64,000 bases of DNA. It comes from Escherichia coli. GTDB taxonomy: Bacteria > Pseudomonadota > Gammaproteobacteria > Enterobacterales > Enterobacteriaceae. Location of the stretch: the NCBI RefSeq assembly GCF_003790525.1, contig NZ_CP033635.1; one strand, 5' to 3'. Made by a program: the position numbers and the translations under genes. Below are positions 3,660 through 38,180 of the stretch, piece after piece. The first letter of the stretch is position 1. Each line of letters starts with the position of its first letter. Under the pieces are notes generated by a model. The model ran no database searches. It saw only the letters and a list, made by a program, of their open reading frames with translations, and had not been told where the DNA came from.

Positions 3660-4494
<835 letters not shown>

Positions 4495-4498
4495 TTAG

Positions 4499-5065
4499 TT
4501 ACGCCGACTGCTCGCTGGCAACGATCTCTTCAATGGACCACGGATGAAACTTAATGGTTGTTTTACCATCGGTGACCGCCAGCGTCGGATTCGGTAATCG
4601 TTCATGCTCACCTTTTGGCGAACTGGTTTTAACTGAGATCCCCGGCAGGCTGAGTCCTTCATCAGAAAGCAATGCCAGCGCACGGGCATTCAGCGTTTCT
4701 GGATCACCCGGCAGAACGATTTCAATATGTTCCCAACCTTCGTGCGGGTAACGTTTTTCCCCAGGCCACGGTAGCTCCACAATGGAAAACTGCCAGTGAG
4801 CAACCTGTACCGGTTCATGCAATTTAAACAGACAAATCGGTCTGCCATTGATCATATTTTCTGACAAAAGCTCGCCGCACTGTTCAAACCCGCGACGCCA
4901 GCGCTCAGCGGTGGCGTTTTGATGGCAACGCAAGGAAATGTGATCGGCAGTCAGCGGAGTGATATCCAACCCCAGACGGCGGGAAAGTTCATCTAATGCG
5001 TGGGTAAATCGCGGTAAATCCGATGCAATATCCTGCAGCTCGTCGATAGATTGCCAGTTCGCCAT
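4499..5065 (-). CDS. yecM: YecM (VOC-fold protein of unknown function)
   Basis: ORF MANWQSIDELQDIASDLPRF...; K-12 start taken at MANWQ (188 aa). Confidence 0.9.
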   Translation of the reverse strand: MANWQSIDELQDIASDLPRFTHALDELSRRLGLDITPLTADHISLRCHQNATAERWRRGFEQCGELLSENMINGRPICLFKLHEPVQVAHWQFSIVELPWPGEKRYPHEGWEHIEIVLPGDPETLNARALALLSDEGLSLPGISVKTSSPKGEHERLPNPTLAVTDGKTTIKFHPWSIEEIVASEQSA

Positions 5066-5280: not shown

Positions 5281-7014
5281 GTGAATATTCAGGCTCTTCT
5301 CTCAGAAAAAGTCCGTCAGGCCATGATTGCGGCAGGCGCGCCTGCGGATTGCGAACCGCAGGTTCGTCAGTCAGCAAAAGTTCAGTTCGGCGACTATCAG
5401 GCTAACGGCATGATGGCAGTTGCTAAAAAACTGGGTATGGCACCGCGACAATTAGCAGAGCAGGTGCTGACTCATCTGGATCTTAACGGTATCGCCAGCA
5501 AAGTTGAGATCGCGGGTCCTGGCTTTATCAACATTTTCCTTGATCCGGCATTCCTGGCTGATCATGTTCAGCAGGCGCTGGCGTCCGATCGTCTCGGTGT
5601 TGCTACGCCAGAAAAACAGACCATTGTGGTTGACTACTCTGCGCCAAACGTGGCGAAAGAGATGCATGTCGGTCACCTGCGCTCTACCATTATTGGTGAC
5701 GCAGCAGTTCGTACTCTGGAGTTCCTCGGTCACAAAGTGATTCGCGCAAACCACGTCGGCGACTGGGGCACTCAGTTCGGTATGCTGATTGCGTGGCTGG
5801 AAAAGCAGCAGCAGGAAAACGCCGGTGAAATGGAGCTGGCTGACCTTGAAGGTTTCTACCGCGATGCGAAAAAGCATTACGACGAAGATGAAGAGTTTGC
5901 CGAGCGTGCACGTAACTACGTGGTAAAACTGCAAAGCGGTGACGAATATTTCCGCGAGATGTGGCGCAAACTGGTCGACATCACCATGACGCAGAACCAG
6001 ATCACCTACGATCGTCTCAACGTGACGCTGACCCGTGATGACGTGATGGGTGAAAGCCTCTACAACCCAATGCTGCCGGGTATCGTAGCGGACCTGAAAG
6101 CCAAAGGTCTGGCAGTAGAAAGTGAAGGCGCGACCGTCGTATTCCTTGATGAGTTCAAAAACAAGGAAGGCGAACCGATGGGCGTGATCATTCAGAAGAA
6201 AGATGGTGGCTATCTCTACACCACCACTGATATCGCCTGTGCGAAATATCGTTATGAAACACTGCATGCCGATCGCGTGCTGTATTACATCGACTCCCGT
6301 CAGCATCAACACCTGATGCAGGCGTGGGCTATCGTCCGCAAAGCAGGCTATGTACCGGAATCCGTACCGCTGGAACACCACATGTTCGGCATGATGCTGG
6401 GTAAAGACGGCAAACCGTTCAAAACCCGCGCGGGTGGTACAGTGAAACTGGCAGACCTGCTGGATGAAGCCCTGGAACGCGCACGCCGTCTGGTGGCAGA
6501 GAAGAACCCGGATATGCCAGCCGATGAGCTGGAAAAACTGGCTAATGCGGTTGGTATTGGTGCGGTTAAATACGCAGATCTCTCCAAAAACCGTACCACT
6601 GACTACATCTTCGACTGGGACAACATGCTGGCGTTTGAGGGTAATACCGCGCCATACATGCAGTATGCTTACACGCGTGTATTGTCCGTGTTCCGTAAAG
6701 CAGAAATTGACGAAGAGCAACTGGCTGCAGCTCCGGTAATCATCCGTGAAGATCGTGAAGCACAACTGGCAGCTCGCCTGCTGCAGTTTGAAGAAACCCT
6801 CACTGTGGTTGCCCGTGAAGGCACGCCGCATGTGATGTGTGCTTACCTGTACGATCTGGCCGGTCTGTTCTCTGGCTTCTACGAGCACTGCCCGATCCTC
6901 AGCGCAGAAAACGAAGAAGTGCGTAACAGCCGTCTGAAACTGGCACAACTGACGGCGAAGACGCTGAAACTGGGTCTGGATACGCTGGGTATTGAGACAG
7001 TAGAGCGTATGTAA
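5281..7014 (+). CDS. argS: arginine--tRNA ligase
   Basis: 577-aa [22 protein letters not shown]..., HVGH motif present; recognised as ArgS. Confidence 0.97.
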
Positions 7015-7028
7015 TCGCGTTATACGGC

Positions 7029-7062
7029 AAAAGCCGATGTCATGGCAGACATCGGCTTTTTT
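7029..7062. terminator. bidirectional intrinsic terminator between argS and flhE
   Basis: Hairpin gccgatgtc-atggca-gacatcggc flanked by A-run and T-run. Confidence 0.75.
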
Positions 7063-7066
7063 ATCA

Positions 7067-7459
7067 TTAACGATAATTCACAATCACTTCATTCCGTTGT
7101 ACCTTTAGCGGCGGAATTAACCGCCCACCGCCAGGCACTTCCCAGATAAAGCGCAACGGTTCTGCCGCCGGTATACCGGAAAAGGCCACGGTGGTTCCGC
7201 TCTGCCCCTCTAATTCGACACAACGAGATTGTGAACACAAGCGAACCCGCAGCCCTACGGGAGTTGGGCCGATAAGCTGATAACGCCACGCCACCAGCGT
7301 CATCAATCCTGAAGCAGGTTGTCGAGTAGAAAGAGGCGCTGACGACATCGACTCACCACGGTGATTCAGCGTAACGCCCACACTACTCGCCTGCCACATC
7401 CCCTCTCCGGCGGCTTGCACCAGCAGCGGAAACAATAATATTGCTAATAAGGTTCTCAT
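7067..7459 (-). CDS. flhE: flagellar protein FlhE
   Basis: ORF MRTLLAILLFPLLVQAAGEGMWQ... recognised as FlhE. Confidence 0.93.
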   Translation of the reverse strand: MRTLLAILLFPLLVQAAGEGMWQASSVGVTLNHRGESMSSAPLSTRQPASGLMTLVAWRYQLIGPTPVGLRVRLCSQSRCVELEGQSGTTVAFSGIPAAEPLRFIWEVPGGGRLIPPLKVQRNEVIVNYR

Positions 7460-9537
7460 CATTTACCGCCAATTGTCGCCGTCATGCGGATATGTCGGTT
7501 ATCAGACAGTTCCAGATTCGACAGCACCACTAACTGCGGCAGACTGCGGCGCAGGAAGCGAGACAATAAAGGTCGCAGCGCGTGGTTCACCAATAAAACT
7601 GGCGGCGCACCCAACATCTCCTGACGGGATAGCGCTTCCTGAGTTTGCGCCAGTAAACGATCCGCCAGCCCTGGCTCCAGTCCGCCCCCGCCCTGCAGCG
7701 CCTGTAGTAACAAACGTTCCAGCGGTGTATCGAGGCCAATAACATGGACTTCATCTTTGCCAGGAAACCACTGCTGGGTAATCGCCCGTCCCAACGCCAC
7801 GCGCACGACGGCGGTTAATTCATGTGGATCGCTTTGGATGGGCGCATGTTCCGCCAGCGTTTCGAGAATAGTGCGCATATCGCGAATCGGTACTTTTTCA
7901 TCGAGCAGATTTTGCAGCACTTTATGCAGTGTGGTGAGCGTGACGACGCCAGGAACGAGATCTTCCGTCAGCTTTGGCATCTCCTGGGCGACGCGATCCA
8001 GCAGCTGTTGCGCCTCCTGACGACCAAACAGCTCTGCGGCATGCTGGCTAATGAGGTGGTTAAGATGCGTTGCCACCACCGTGCTGGCCTCAACCACGGT
8101 GTATCCCTGAATCTGCGCCTGTTCTTTAAGCGCACTTTCAATCCAGATAGCATTCAGGCCAAATGCCGGATCGACGGTCGCCTCACCAGGTAACGTCCCG
8201 GCAGCGGTACCAGGGTTAATCGCCAACCAACGCCCCGGATAAGCATCACCACTGCCTATCTCCACGCCTTTCATCAAAATGCGATAGCGGGCAGGTTGCA
8301 GATCCATATTGTCGCGAATGTGCACCACCGGCGGCAGAAACCCCATCTCCTGGGCAAATTTCTTGCGAATACTGCGTATACGGCCCAGCAACTCACCATC
8401 CTGCTGGAAATCGACCATCGGGATCAGGCGATAACCCACTTCCATTCCCAGAGAATCTTCCAGTTGTACATCGTTCCACGTCGCTTCGACAACGGTATTA
8501 TTCTCTGCCATTTTTACCGGTTTTGGTTCGGCAGGCGCTTTTTGTTCACGTCCACGGATCCACCAGGCCAGCCCCAGCAATCCGGCAGTGAACAGCAAAA
8601 ATACCAGGTTTGGCATTCCAGGCACCAGGCCGAGTAAACCGAGCACGGCGGCGCTTAACAACATAACGCTTGGGTTACTGAAAAGCTGATTCACCATCTG
8701 CTCGCCAACATCCTGATCGGTGCTGACACGCGTAACGATGACCCCCGCGGCGGTAGAAATCACCAACGCCGGAATTTGTGCCACCAGACCGTCGCCAATG
8801 GTCAATAGCGTATAACTTTCCGCCGCGTGTCCCATGCTCATGCCATGTTGCAGCACGCCGACCAGCAACCCGCCGACAACGTTAATGACCATGATGAGGA
8901 TCCCGGCGATGGCATCGCCGCGAACAAACTTACTTGCCCCATCCATTGAGCCGTAAAAATCGGCTTCCTGAGTCACTTCGGAGCGGCGTTTTTTCGCCTC
9001 ATCTTCACCAATCAATCCAGCGTTAAGGTCGGCGTCAATCGCCATCTGCTTACCCGGCATGCCATCGAGAACAAAGCGCGCACCCACTTCTGCGATACGC
9101 CCGGCACCTTTGGTAATGACCATAAAGTTGATGATCACGAGAATGACAAACACCACGATACCGATAGCGAAATTGCCACCAACGAGGAAGTGACCGAACG
9201 CTTCGACCACCTTTCCAGCCGCCGCCGCGCCGGTATGCCCTTCCATCAAAATGATACGGGTTGAAGCCACGTTAAGTGCCAGACGCAACAGCGTGGTAAA
9301 CAACAGGATGGTCGGAAACGCAGCAAACTCAAGCGTGCGCTGGGTAAACATCGCCACCAGCAACACCATGATCGACAAGGCAATATTGAAGGTAAACAGC
9401 AGGTCGAGTATGAATGCGGGCAGTGGCAGTACCATCATCGACAAGATCAACAGGATCAAAATCGGTCCGGCAAGGATCTGCCATTGTGTCGATTTCAGGT
9501 TTGCGGGCAGGCGCAGCATCGCGGCCAGATTACTCAT
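7459..9537 (-). CDS. flhA: flagellar export apparatus protein FlhA
   Basis: 692-aa ORF MSNLAAMLRLPANLKSTQWQILAGPILILL... Confidence 0.97.
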   Translation of the reverse strand: MSNLAAMLRLPANLKSTQWQILAGPILILLILSMMVLPLPAFILDLLFTFNIALSIMVLLVAMFTQRTLEFAAFPTILLFTTLLRLALNVASTRIILMEGHTGAAAAGKVVEAFGHFLVGGNFAIGIVVFVILVIINFMVITKGAGRIAEVGARFVLDGMPGKQMAIDADLNAGLIGEDEAKKRRSEVTQEADFYGSMDGASKFVRGDAIAGILIMVINVVGGLLVGVLQHGMSMGHAAESYTLLTIGDGLVAQIPALVISTAAGVIVTRVSTDQDVGEQMVNQLFSNPSVMLLSAAVLGLLGLVPGMPNLVFLLFTAGLLGLAWWIRGREQKAPAEPKPVKMAENNTVVEATWNDVQLEDSLGMEVGYRLIPMVDFQQDGELLGRIRSIRKKFAQEMGFLPPVVHIRDNMDLQPARYRILMKGVEIGSGDAYPGRWLAINPGTAAGTLPGEATVDPAFGLNAIWIESALKEQAQIQGYTVVEASTVVATHLNHLISQHAAELFGRQEAQQLLDRVAQEMPKLTEDLVPGVVTLTTLHKVLQNLLDEKVPIRDMRTILETLAEHAPIQSDPHELTAVVRVALGRAITQQWFPGKDEVHVIGLDTPLERLLLQALQGGGGLEPGLADRLLAQTQEALSRQEMLGAPPVLLVNHALRPLLSRFLRRSLPQLVVLSNLELSDNRHIRMTATIGGK

Positions 9538-10678: not shown

Positions 10679-10914
10679 GTCGCCAATCCTGGAAAGAGTA
10701 TTAAGCGTAAATGATGCCAGATCGCAAAGCGTTCAATGGTTTGAGTAAGGGGCAAAACAGGCGGGATTTAGGGCGTTTATGCAAAAAACAGGTTCAGTTG
10801 CAGAACGTTTTGCGAACCATTTTCCAGTTCTGATATTTAGCCATTTAGCCTATAGAATCGCCCACCGCCTCTCTGTTAGTTTGCTAATAATTAAATTATT
10901 ACAAAGGCGATCAA
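10679..10914. promoter_or_regulatory. divergent intergenic region: flhBAE class-2 promoter region (minus) and putative promoter of the inserted cassette (plus)
   Basis: 236-bp gap between divergent starts; candidate sigma70-like elements ttgcga (10810-10815) and tatagaat (10851-10858); RBS aagg 9-12 nt upstream of ATG 10915. Confidence 0.4.
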
Positions 10915-12423
10915 ATGGAATGGCAACAATTGCTTAACTGCAACCGTCGGAAAGATAATCTAAAAAAAACCAGCATAGAATTTTTACATCCCCTTGCTAG
11001 CGGAAGACAAGAGATCGAGCGGGATTACGACCGATTACTTTTTGCTGCGCCAACTCGTCGGCTTGCGGATAAAACACAAGTTTTCCCGTTAGATCAAAAT
11101 GACAGTATACGGACGAGGCTGACTCATTCTCACGAAGTAGCAAACTTTGCTCGCGGAATAGGAATGAGACTCGCTTTCGAGATGAAGGAACACATCTTTG
11201 GCGAAATACCCACGGGGATTGTCGTTGAACGCGACGTTCCTGCTCTGTTAGCAGCGATCGGACTGGCACACGATCTCGGTAATCCACCATTTGGGCATCA
11301 AGGTGAAGCAGCGATGCGCGCATGGTTTAATAAAAATCTTCCAGGCCTTCTTGATAAAGAAGTAAACAGCGAAATATATAACGACTTTCTGCAATTTGAT
11401 GGAAACTCACAAACCCTACGCCTGGTTACCAAATTACAAATTATTAACGATAACTTTGGTCTGAATCTGACCTATGCCACGCTGGCTGCACTGATCAAAT
11501 ATCCCCGAGCTTCATATTCATCGGACAAACATTGGAAAAAGCACGGTTTTTTCTATTCTGAGCATGAGGTTGTCATGGATGTCTGGCAGCAAACGGGCCT
11601 TGGCGTACCAGGTAATGATGCCGGTTGCCGCCACCCATTTACCTGGATAATGGAAGCTTGCGACGATATTGCCTACTCTGTGCTTGACGCAGAAGATACC
11701 ATCAAGAAAGGATTTGCCTCATACCAGGATTTGCGTGATTTTTTGATGTCACAATCCGAGCCGAACGATGTAATTCAACATGTTATTGAAGCTGTAGAGG
11801 CCAAAAATGACGCCTGGAAAGAGCAAAGAAATGCACTTTCACCGGCGGAAATTAATGAACTCAGTATGCAAATGTTCAGAGTTTATGCCACCAGTGCATT
11901 GATTAATGCCGTAGTAGAAGCCTTTCGCGAACAATTACCCACGCTGATGCAGCGTGACTGCCCGTTCAAAGATTTAATCTCGCAAAGCAAAGGTCACGCT
12001 CTCTGCACTGCCCTGAAAATGTTCGACCGAACACGAGGCTACCTTCATCGTTCAGTCTTGCAACTGGAACTTAGGGGATCTAATTACATTACTAACTTGA
12101 TGGATATGCTCTGGATTGGCATCCATGGACACAAAACAAAGAAACAACGAGACGGAGAACGCGAGTCCGCGTCTGCAGATAACCTTTTTGTTTCTCGTGA
12201 AGAATACCTGTCGGATACTCCCTTTGGTCGCTATGCTTACGGGACAATCTCTGAAAATTATCGCCGTGTGTTTGAAGATCCCGCCAATACACTCCCTGCT
12301 CTTTATAAAGAAGCGCAGTTGCTTACCGACGCAATCTCAGGCATGACGGATAGTTATTTAATGCGCCTTCACGATGAGCTAAAATCACTGTATGAATGTG
12401 GTCTCAAACACCCAACAGCTTGA
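10915..12423 (+). CDS. dGTP triphosphohydrolase (Dgt)-family HD-domain protein, extra paralog in non-native locus
   Basis: 502-aa ORF; motifs RRLADKTQVFPL, RTRLTHSHEV, HDLGNPPFGHQGE, FDGNSQTLRL, WIMEACDDIAYSVLDAEDTI, ISGMTDSYL align with E. coli Dgt by eye; AT-rich; opposite strand to flanking flagellar genes. Confidence 0.8.
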   Translation: MEWQQLLNCNRRKDNLKKTSIEFLHPLASGRQEIERDYDRLLFAAPTRRLADKTQVFPLDQNDSIRTRLTHSHEVANFARGIGMRLAFEMKEHIFGEIPTGIVVERDVPALLAAIGLAHDLGNPPFGHQGEAAMRAWFNKNLPGLLDKEVNSEIYNDFLQFDGNSQTLRLVTKLQIINDNFGLNLTYATLAALIKYPRASYSSDKHWKKHGFFYSEHEVVMDVWQQTGLGVPGNDAGCRHPFTWIMEACDDIAYSVLDAEDTIKKGFASYQDLRDFLMSQSEPNDVIQHVIEAVEAKNDAWKEQRNALSPAEINELSMQMFRVYATSALINAVVEAFREQLPTLMQRDCPFKDLISQSKGHALCTALKMFDRTRGYLHRSVLQLELRGSNYITNLMDMLWIGIHGHKTKKQRDGERESASADNLFVSREEYLSDTPFGRYAYGTISENYRRVFEDPANTLPALYKEAQLLTDAISGMTDSYLMRLHDELKSLYECGLKHPTA

Positions 12424-13144
12424 ACAGCGTATCGCCGATTTTTTTACGCTTAGTGATGAGCATAAGAAAGCCAGAGTATTACTTGATACTCTGGCCTGTT
12501 CCTGTCCGGCCTGGATTTTTGGCGGGATGGTGCGTGACTTAGGCTTGTTTGGCGTCGAGGGATTCTCTTCAGACCTTGATATCGTCATCGGTCGCTCCCG
12601 TGAGGAACTCTTCCGGACATTGGCTGAACTGCCCGTCAAACAACTGCGTTTTAATAAGTTCGGTGGGATCCGTTTTCGTTATCACGACTTCGAATTTGAT
12701 ATCTGGAACCTCAATGAGACATGGGCATTTCGGGAAAAACTTATATTTTGTGAGGATGAATCAAGTCTGTTAAACACTACGCTGATGAGTTGGGATGCCG
12801 TGCTCTATGATCTACGTAGTGAAAAAATTATCAGTAAAGATAATTATTTGACCGACTTAAATCGCAGACATCTTGAACTTGTTCTTCATACTAACCCCAA
12901 TCCAAGCGGTTCGGTAACGAAAATTTTACGCACTATTTTTACTAAGCAGGTAAAGAGTTTAGGTCCGGAACTCTGTCATTTCTTGCACCATGAACTGACG
13001 AAAAAACGTTATGAAGTTTGGCATCATTACGATGTACTGCACTACCAGTCATCGTCATTTTCTCGTTCACAATTTAATGCGTTGATAAATTTACTGGCGC
13101 AACAATCACGCTTCGCTGATCTAAAATTATCAAATTACAAATAA
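12392..13144 (+). CDS. Pol-beta superfamily nucleotidyltransferase, CCA-adding/poly(A) polymerase head-like
   Basis: 250-aa ORF with IFGGMVRDLGLFGVEGFSSDLDIVI, matching the GGxVRD...DxD head motif of class II tRNA nucleotidyltransferases; overlaps preceding gene by 32 nt; very AT-rich. Confidence 0.55.
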   Translation: MNVVSNTQQLEQRIADFFTLSDEHKKARVLLDTLACSCPAWIFGGMVRDLGLFGVEGFSSDLDIVIGRSREELFRTLAELPVKQLRFNKFGGIRFRYHDFEFDIWNLNETWAFREKLIFCEDESSLLNTTLMSWDAVLYDLRSEKIISKDNYLTDLNRRHLELVLHTNPNPSGSVTKILRTIFTKQVKSLGPELCHFLHHELTKKRYEVWHHYDVLHYQSSSFSRSQFNALINLLAQQSRFADLKLSNYK

Positions 13145-13231
13145 CCATCCTCCACATACTTCCTGAACGATACCCGCCCCCCTGCTATCGGCCTGGCATC
13201 ATCGCGCAGGCCGAAGTTAAGGCAATACAAA

Positions 13232-19561: not shown

Positions 19562-19588
19562 TTATCGGCAAGGAAGGGGGAAACTTTA
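19562..19588 (-). promoter_or_regulatory. sigma28 (FliA) class-3 promoter of tar-tap-cheRBYZ operon
   Basis: Minus-strand TAAAGTTT-N11-GCCGATAA, perfect consensus. Confidence 0.9.
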
Positions 19589-19616
19589 TTGCTGATGCCA
19601 CCCGCCGCGAAATTGA

Positions 19617-19647
19617 AATAAAAAACCCGATGCGCAGATCATCGGGT
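19617..19647 (-). terminator. intrinsic terminator of motAB-cheAW (mocha) operon
   Basis: Hairpin cccgatg/catcggg followed on minus strand by a long T-run. Confidence 0.75.
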
Positions 19648-19674
19648 TCATTTCAATTGAGGAAATCGGGAGAA

Positions 19675-25036: not shown

Positions 25037-25815
25037 TATTCCCACCCAGAATAACCAACTTTATTTTTATGCGGTTTCACCGCACCCCGTGATGTCGCCG
25101 GGAAGCCCCGGTAAAAAATAATTAGCATTAGAATAGTTGCGATAAGCTGCAATAAGCAGAACCACCTTTTTGGTTTAATATGTCCTTACAAATAGAAATG
25201 GGTCTTTACACTTATCTAAGATTTTTCCTAAATCGACGCAACTGTACTCGTCACTACACGCACATACAACGGAGGGGGGCTGCGATTTTCAATAATGTGT
25301 GATGCAGATCACACAAAACACTCAATTACTTAACATAAATGTATAAGTCATACTTTTGTTTTGGGTGTATTTCAATCTGTTAAAAAGTTTTTCGCTACGC
25401 TAGCAAGCAAAAATGAAACAGGAATAATCGAAATGGGATGTTGCGCACAGTTAAAATAACTCACCGTAAATAATCATCTGCTATAAATAATCACTTTCAT
25501 GCAATACCAGATAAGCTATTTTTAAACAGACACTTACCGCACAACAAACTAATTAAATACAAAGAAAGGCAACAATCAACTTAATGTTAATGAAATGTTT
25601 TACATATATTAACCACTTGTTTAATGCGGAGAATCAGTACACTATTTTCTTATAATTACATTTGAAATTATATGATCACCGGGAGTGATTGATTAATTGT
25701 CTTTACTAATAATCAGACTAATATTTACCTGTTTGACCGAGTTGGGATTGCGTCGTTTCTCCATTAGGAGTAAAGCTTTAATGTCACCTGAAGTTCACAG
25801 AATAAGGAACAGGTT
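25037..25815. promoter_or_regulatory. flhDC promoter/long 5' UTR and divergent uspC promoter region; no IS element present
   Basis: About 780-bp AT-rich intergenic region between divergent flhD and uspC, uninterrupted by any transposase ORF. Confidence 0.6.
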
Positions 25816-37877: not shown

Positions 37878-37964
37878 TGGTACCCGGAGCGGGACTTGAA
37901 CCCGCACAGCGCGAACGCCGAGGGATTTTAAATCCCTTGTGTCTACCGATTCCACCATCCGGGC
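37878..37964 (-). tRNA. leuZ: tRNA-Leu (anticodon UAA)
   Basis: Reverse complement reads GCCCGGATGGTGGAATCGGTAGACACAAGGGATTTAAAATCCC...GGGTACCA with CCA end. Confidence 0.93.
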
Positions 37965-37976
37965 TCGGGAAGAAAG

Positions 37977-38050
37977 TGGAGGCGCGTTCCGGAGTCGAAC
38001 CGGACTAGACGGATTTGCAATCCGCTACATAACCGCTTTGTTAACGCGCC
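37977..38050 (-). tRNA. cysT: tRNA-Cys (anticodon GCA)
   Basis: Reverse complement reads GGCGCGTTAACAAAGCGGTTATGTAGCGGATTGCAAATCCGTC...CTCCA. Confidence 0.93.
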
Positions 38051-38104
38051 AAATTCTTCAGGCCTTTCAGCCAGACATCCGCTTGACGCCGATGTCTTTT
38101 AAAC

Positions 38105-38180
<76 letters not shown>

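Follow-up and report, generated by a model that had tools for sequence, protein, structure and literature searches.

The DNA analysed here, referred to as the window, is a stretch of 64 000 nt from Escherichia coli in which argS on the plus strand and flhE on the minus strand converge on a short intergenic spacer (all coordinates are collected in Table 1). A sequence-only reading of this DNA had described the gap as 52 bp long with one hairpin and with the gene yecT absent, and the coordinates, the folding and a tblastn search (see below) all agree with this description. We observed that the hairpin is the only structured element in the spacer. Its stem consists of 13 pairs, 6 of them G–C, it begins 15 nt past the argS stop codon and no plus-strand gene follows it. 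When a 71-nt region was folded as RNA, a minimum free energy of about −25 kcal/mol was obtained for either strand, corresponding to z-scores of −4.4 and −4.3 for the two strands compared to dinucleotide shuffles, and none of 200 shuffled sequences was as stable.

Applying a consensus terminator scan (at least 5 T within 8 nt for the U-tract and a permitted loop of 3–8 nt), we found that the hairpin was called on the plus strand only, where the T6 run lies directly 3′ of the stem and gives the layout of an intrinsic terminator. On the minus strand the stem is equally stable, but the RNA continues past it with U4 and then G, which falls short of the U-tract that the scan demands. As regards the bidirectional terminator proposed earlier from the letters alone, the stem is stable on both strands and the call is confined to the argS strand. 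A promoter scan revealed no promoter-like site between positions 6500 and 7600. In a scan of the whole window against Rfam 15 no family reached its gathering score at 7015–7066, and the only matches anywhere in the window were MicL, C0465 and three tRNAs. A 35-aa open reading frame at 7042–7149 on the plus strand, with its start in the loop of the hairpin and an antisense orientation to flhE, was judged to be spurious as it had no other support.

Table 1. Features of the argS–flhE junction, its counterparts in other genomes and further loci of the window (window coordinates unless another locus is named)
Feature	Position	Strand	Remarks
argS (arginine--tRNA ligase)	5281-7014	+	Stop TAA 7012-7014; ORF list and SMS-3-5 RefSeq annotation
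argS–flhE intergenic spacer	7015-7066	none	Short, yecT-less allele; exactly 52 bp, the whole gap
Hairpin	7029-7060	+	Arms AAAAGCCGATGTC (7029-7041) and GACATCGGCTTTT (7048-7060), loop ATGGCA (7042-7047); folding, terminator scan
G+C core of hairpin	7033-7041 / 7048-7056		
T6 run	7057-7062	+	U-tract in argS direction; right-hand K-12 homology restarts here
A4 run	7029-7032	-	Weaker U4 tract on minus-strand RNA, flhBAE direction; from the sequence
flhE (last gene of flhBAE)	7067-7459	-	Stop TAA 7067-7069, then in-frame TGA; RefSeq
yecV (K-12)	b4778	-	14 aa
yecT (K-12)	b1877	+	162 aa
MFS_2–GH88 examples	L022 4149-6885; L013 4157-7222		Within loci L012-L087
cheZ–flhB insert	~10783-13220		~2.4 kb, 87 bp in K-12; within flagellar region II
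Insert gene, HD-domain protein	10915-12423	+	502 aa; PADLOC dGTPase anti-phage defence model, 6e-71
Insert gene overlapping the 502-aa gene	12392-13144	+	250 aa; no Pfam or PADLOC match
espR3	57419-58558	-	Intact gene for a leucine-rich-repeat T3SS effector (379 aa); K-12 counterpart is the yedN pseudogene
intG remnant	58709-58989		93% identity to K-12; integrase fragment annotated in SMS-3-5 at 58744-58884
MicL sRNA	3660-3967	-	Inside cutC as in K-12; Rfam gathering score
C0465 RNA	19578-19655	+	Rfam gathering score
Three tRNAs	37881-38180		Rfam

The two junction alleles of E. coli

Positions 6700–7400 of the window match E. coli SMS-3-5 (NC_010498.1) at 100% identity, and its record annotates only argS and flhE at the junction. 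In K-12 MG1655 the argS–flhE spacer measures 784 bp and contains yecV and yecT (interval b1876–b1878, b4778), so that the earlier statement on a yecT gene at this place in K-12 proved correct. The K-12 YecT protein matches the Pfam family LprI (PF07007) with an E-value of 1e-17. Searching the 64-kb window with this protein by tblastn we found no YecT-like coding sequence (best E = 3.8), and blastn searches for remnants of yecT or yecV or for the K-12 spacer gave chance matches of 14–18 nt only.

The genes on both sides are well conserved between the two strains: argS shows 97.6% nucleotide identity to K-12 and flhE about 93–96%, with 127 of 130 residues of FlhE identical. Homology between SMS-3-5 and K-12 extends 3 nt past the argS stop codon (window position 7017) and resumes inside the T-run at window position 7057 (K-12 locus position 4570). 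The extra DNA of K-12, about 0.73 kb, begins after its argS hairpin and extends to the stop codon of flhE, so that the K-12 allele reads hairpin, T-run, yecV, yecT, T-run and flhE and the short allele hairpin, T-run and flhE. The second T-run, a T7, closes the K-12 segment immediately before the flhE stop codon, at the point from which K-12 and the short allele are homologous again. With a GC content of 39% the K-12 spacer is AT-rich compared to argS and flhE (53%), and the yecV–yecT segment carries no terminal inverted repeats. The argS-proximal hairpin ends in GGCTTTTTTAT in both alleles, whereas the K-12 stem (AAGCCTGATC/GATCAGGCTT, with a 10-nt loop) differs from that of SMS-3-5, as does the stretch of 14–20 nt leading from the argS stop codon to the hairpin. 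The K-12 hairpin folds as stably as that of SMS-3-5; the terminator scan made no call in the K-12 spacer, probably because the 10-nt loop exceeds the 3–8 nt that the scan allows. The flhE stop codon also differs and is TGA in K-12 and TAA in SMS-3-5.

Two further observations concern the immediate surroundings. An exact direct repeat of 11 bp, GATAATTCACA, is shared by the 3′ ends of the K-12 genes yecT and flhE (locus positions 4457–4467 and 4586–4596); about 0.08 occurrences are expected by chance, and the repeat may be a microhomology scar of the joining of the yecT segment. Moreover, identity between SMS-3-5 and K-12 is 92–95% per 100 nt in flhE, compared to 96–100% in the adjacent flhA (7460–8460) and 97–99% in argS near the junction. 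This divergence of flhE could reflect relaxed constraint or an old divergence linked to the junction allele.

For an estimate of how common the two forms are, we analyzed 5426 complete E. coli genomes. The yecV–yecT segment was present in 3640 of them and a short junction of the SMS-3-5 type in 1782 (5422 in sum). The query for the short junction comprised 106 bp (window 6990–7095) and matched a single place per genome in almost all cases (median 1, highest 2). Among the matches listed for positions 6700–7400, those in a single piece, which represent the short allele, have flanks that are 96–100% identical to SMS-3-5, and for those split into two pieces, which represent the yecT allele, the value is 94.7–95.8%. 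Since the identity of the flanks separates the two kinds of match, the alleles are linked to lineage. Among the matches listed, an O25b:H4-ST131 strain and APEC IMT5155 are examples of the short allele, and K-12, ATCC 8739, O157:H7, O104:H4 and O111:H8 of the yecT allele; broadly, the former would fall into phylogroups B2 and F and the latter into A, B1 and E. One genome with a short junction stands apart from all others of its class: in E. coli HS-02 (NZ_CP172818.1, 1917249–1917355) the 3′ arm of the hairpin is replaced or degenerate (AGCCGATGTCATGGAGACCGCTTTTTATTTTTTT), and this hairpin may be a natural terminator-defective variant.

Taken together, we assign a probability of roughly 0.85 to the reading that the 52-bp spacer makes up all of the intergenic DNA in the short allele, that SMS-3-5 carries the empty form of a lineage-linked polymorphism and that the hairpin is a terminator. 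The yecT-less junction is in itself an ordinary, common and already catalogued presence/absence difference, and it is known biology that is contained in the published and annotated SMS-3-5 genome. yecT is an accessory gene without known function, and any pan-genome table will show which strains have it. Its absence had been taken as a mark of a non-MG1655 background. That background is confirmed by the 100% match to SMS-3-5, but the lack of yecT is no distinctive mark of a strain, because it is common to one-third of the complete E. coli genomes and to E. albertii.

The junction in other Enterobacteriaceae and the direction of change

We compared 80 Enterobacteriaceae loci obtained by a scan for FlhE with one genome per species. 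E. albertii NBRC 107761 and a second genome, L008, have a spacer of 55 bp without yecT and share with SMS-3-5 the stem GCCGATGTC/GACATCGGC and the T6 run. Their arms read AAA(A/G)GCCGATGTC and GACATCGGCTTTT, and their loop has 9 nt (GCGGTTACG or GCAGTTACG) in place of ATGGCA in SMS-3-5. The core of the stem is invariant among the short alleles of E. coli, E. albertii and L008, although the flanking genes of the latter two are only 89–94% identical to SMS-3-5. L008 is labelled as E. coli, yet it shows 91–93% identity to SMS-3-5 in argS and in flhE–flhA, and judged by these values it is a non-coli Escherichia lineage. The yecT allele with a hairpin of the K-12 type (AAGCCTGATCAG) was found in E. 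whittamii and in Escherichia sp. E1V33. The flanks cluster mostly by species and not by allele class; in one 250-nt bin of flhE K-12 is nearer to E1V33 (94.0%) than to SMS-3-5 (92.0%), a bin with too few sites to interpret. A small difference was also seen at the end of flhE itself: FlhE terminates in NYRQ* in E. albertii and L008 and in NYR* in E. coli. The TAA of SMS-3-5 flhE (window 7067–7072, including the codon that follows) corresponds to CAA (Gln) in the former two, where the next in-frame TGA serves as the stop codon, and flhE alleles of the K-12 type stop at a different TGA.

Outside Escherichia the junction is usually filled. At least 67 of the 76 non-Escherichia loci contain genes for an MFS_2 transporter and/or a GH88 hydrolase (Pfam) between flhE and argS, and in Salmonella and many Citrobacter a PBP2-like transpeptidase gene is found there in addition. 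All sampled Escherichia loci are without the MFS_2–GH88 pair. In most non-Escherichia genera in which argS was in reach, a conserved hairpin (AAACCCGGC...GCCGGGTTTTTT) follows argS, and in many of them, above all in Enterobacter and its close relatives, it adjoins the 3′ end of the convergent GH88 gene. Four species, Enterobacter sichuanensis, E. asburiae, E. vonholyi and Lelliottia nimipressuralis, resemble SMS-3-5 in that argS and flhE converge at a distance of 54–57 bp with one hairpin of A-tract, stem and T-tract between them, although the stems (AAACCCGGC...GCCGGGTTT) are unrelated to that of SMS-3-5. These junctions keep, beside flhE, the very hairpin that parts argS from GH88 in sister species, and for this reason they look like clean losses of the MFS_2–GH88 pair. 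On the scale of the family the compact junction is a derived state, as judged from the large majority of loci with MFS_2 and/or GH88, and this counts against the reading preferred below.

Within Escherichia, we consider the short allele to be probably the older, empty site and the yecT allele to be most likely a horizontally acquired insertion or replacement. The short form is favored as the older one by the AT-richness of the yecT segment given above, and the hairpin common to SMS-3-5 and E. albertii points in the same direction; E. albertii is the earliest-branching species of the genus. It has been reported that yecT is activated by BglJ–RcsB from its own promoter and that its expression rises when hns and stpA are mutated (PMC3950696). 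Such an H-NS/StpA effect together with AT-richness is typical of acquired DNA. On the other side of the balance, two further Escherichia species also have the yecT allele. Since the hairpins differ, a single clean indel cannot convert one allele into the other.

A vehicle for the acquisition was sought in two collections. The phage collection gave no matches to yecT, and the yecT segment bears no mobile-element signature. The plasmid collection contained no convincing vector either: the yecT matches of 96–99% identity lie on records of 0.44–4.8 Mb or on a 5-kb Klebsiella oxytoca record, which probably represent mislabelled contigs or parts of chromosomes and not true plasmids, and the other five matches are distant (<60%) members of the LprI family in Sinorhizobium and Variovorax.

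The converse direction, in which the short junction arose by deletion of yecV–yecT from a K-12-like ancestor, for instance by recombination between the flanking T-runs, is possible but in our view doubtful. In its favor, GGCTTTTTTAT follows the argS hairpin body in both alleles, the K-12 segment ends in T7 exactly where homology restarts, and the two other Escherichia species have yecT alleles. Deletions at this place do occur, since large spontaneous deletions, [yecT-flhD] and [flhE-flhD], with an endpoint at yecT or flhE have been described for K-12 in the gut of mice (bioRxiv 10.1101/2020.12.04.412072). However, the hairpin and the 14–20 nt before it differ between the alleles, and a simple deletion in K-12 therefore cannot yield the SMS-3-5 sequence. 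The short-allele hairpin in E. albertii, the character of the segment as AT-rich and H-NS/StpA-affected DNA, and the lack of any yecT remnant in the 64-kb window likewise argue against a deletion.

It is also conceivable, though we regard it as unlikely, that the boundary between the argS terminator and flhE is an old hotspot of cargo exchange, at which the empty and the yecV–yecT classes persist across Escherichia species or move between them. The hairpin and the T-runs would then serve as recombination anchor, and the divergence of flhE would be a linked footprint. If true, this would amount to a trans-species polymorphism or to repeated recombination between species.

Putative termination at the shared hairpin

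With the short allele as the probable older form, we return to the hairpin that it carries. The sequence suggests that it is a probable intrinsic (Rho-independent) terminator of argS, in which the stem–loop followed by U6 would end argS transcription without Rho. Read from the other strand, this stem is followed by U4 and G and may stop convergent flhBAE transcription or position its termination, with lower efficiency. Bidirectional action is accordingly plausible but would be asymmetric, with six U residues behind the stem for argS and four for flhE. In single-molecule work on convergent gene pairs of E. coli, a stem–loop was needed for collisions and termination at defined positions between the gene boundaries (bioRxiv 10.1101/2022.10.23.513370). 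Given this requirement, a shared element fits even with one weak U-tract. Bidirectional terminators of convergent E. coli genes likewise consist of a single stem–loop between the stop codons with an A-tract on the 5′ side and a T-tract on the 3′ side; the SMS-3-5 junction departs from this layout in that its U-tract in the flhE direction has only 4 nt.

The comparison of species points to the same function. In about 45 other species a hairpin and a T-run lie right after argS and are common to it and the next convergent gene, be it GH88 or flhE, and altogether three unrelated stem sequences share one layout of A-tract, G+C stem and T-tract. From this we infer that the hairpin is kept for termination, and the layout shared by unrelated stems is the best comparative evidence for it.

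We consider it very improbable that the hairpin is mainly something other than a terminator, be it a repeat of the REP type, a small RNA gene, or a site of integration or recombination at which cargo is captured. The cargo at the junction does vary by lineage and is in every case found between the argS hairpin and flhE, and the 11-bp direct repeat at the yecT and flhE ends in K-12 could be read in the same sense. A dispersed repeat is excluded, though, by the single place that the junction query matches in almost every genome, and neither an Rfam match at 7015–7066 nor a promoter-like site in or near the spacer was found. The K-12 segment is without terminal inverted repeats, and the SMS-3-5 and K-12 annotations place no integrase gene beside the junction. 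Finally, an A-tract, a G+C stem and a T-tract straight after a stop codon are the classical layout of a terminator. An artefact of assembly or sequencing can be dismissed, as 1782 complete genomes, each assembled independently, share the short junction and two further Escherichia species have it too.

The argS–flhBAE junction is a place where the cargo varies across the Enterobacteriaceae and the terminator hairpin shared with the convergent gene is always kept, which makes it a tidy example of operon boundaries that tolerate the gain and loss of genes.

Other variable loci in the window

The sequence-only reading had further suggested that the boundaries of the flagellar region are hotspots of insertions and deletions. 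This is in line with the cargo that varies across the 80 Enterobacteriaceae species and with the deletions of K-12 in the mouse gut, and an additional case is provided by the insert between cheZ and flhB (Table 1), which we detected in 107 of the 5426 complete E. coli genomes.

Two other loci had been cited along with it. The region upstream of flhD had been described as free of IS1, and this holds: the IS1H element of MG1655 (768 bp, between flhD and uspC) appears as a clean gap in the alignment with an 8-bp overlap at 25334–25341, and the window aligns to MG1655 on both sides of it at more than 99.6% identity. The claim that yedM and intG are missing, on the other hand, did not hold. The yedL–fliE interval spans 1627 bp in the window against 1620 bp in K-12, it is collinear with K-12 and aligns from end to end (1755-bp alignment), and a remnant of intG is kept; in the current MG1655 record yedM has no annotation in this interval. 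In the same part of the window the espR3 block is 84% identical to K-12, with spacers on either side of 98–99% identity, and by this measure espR3 is a locally very divergent allele.
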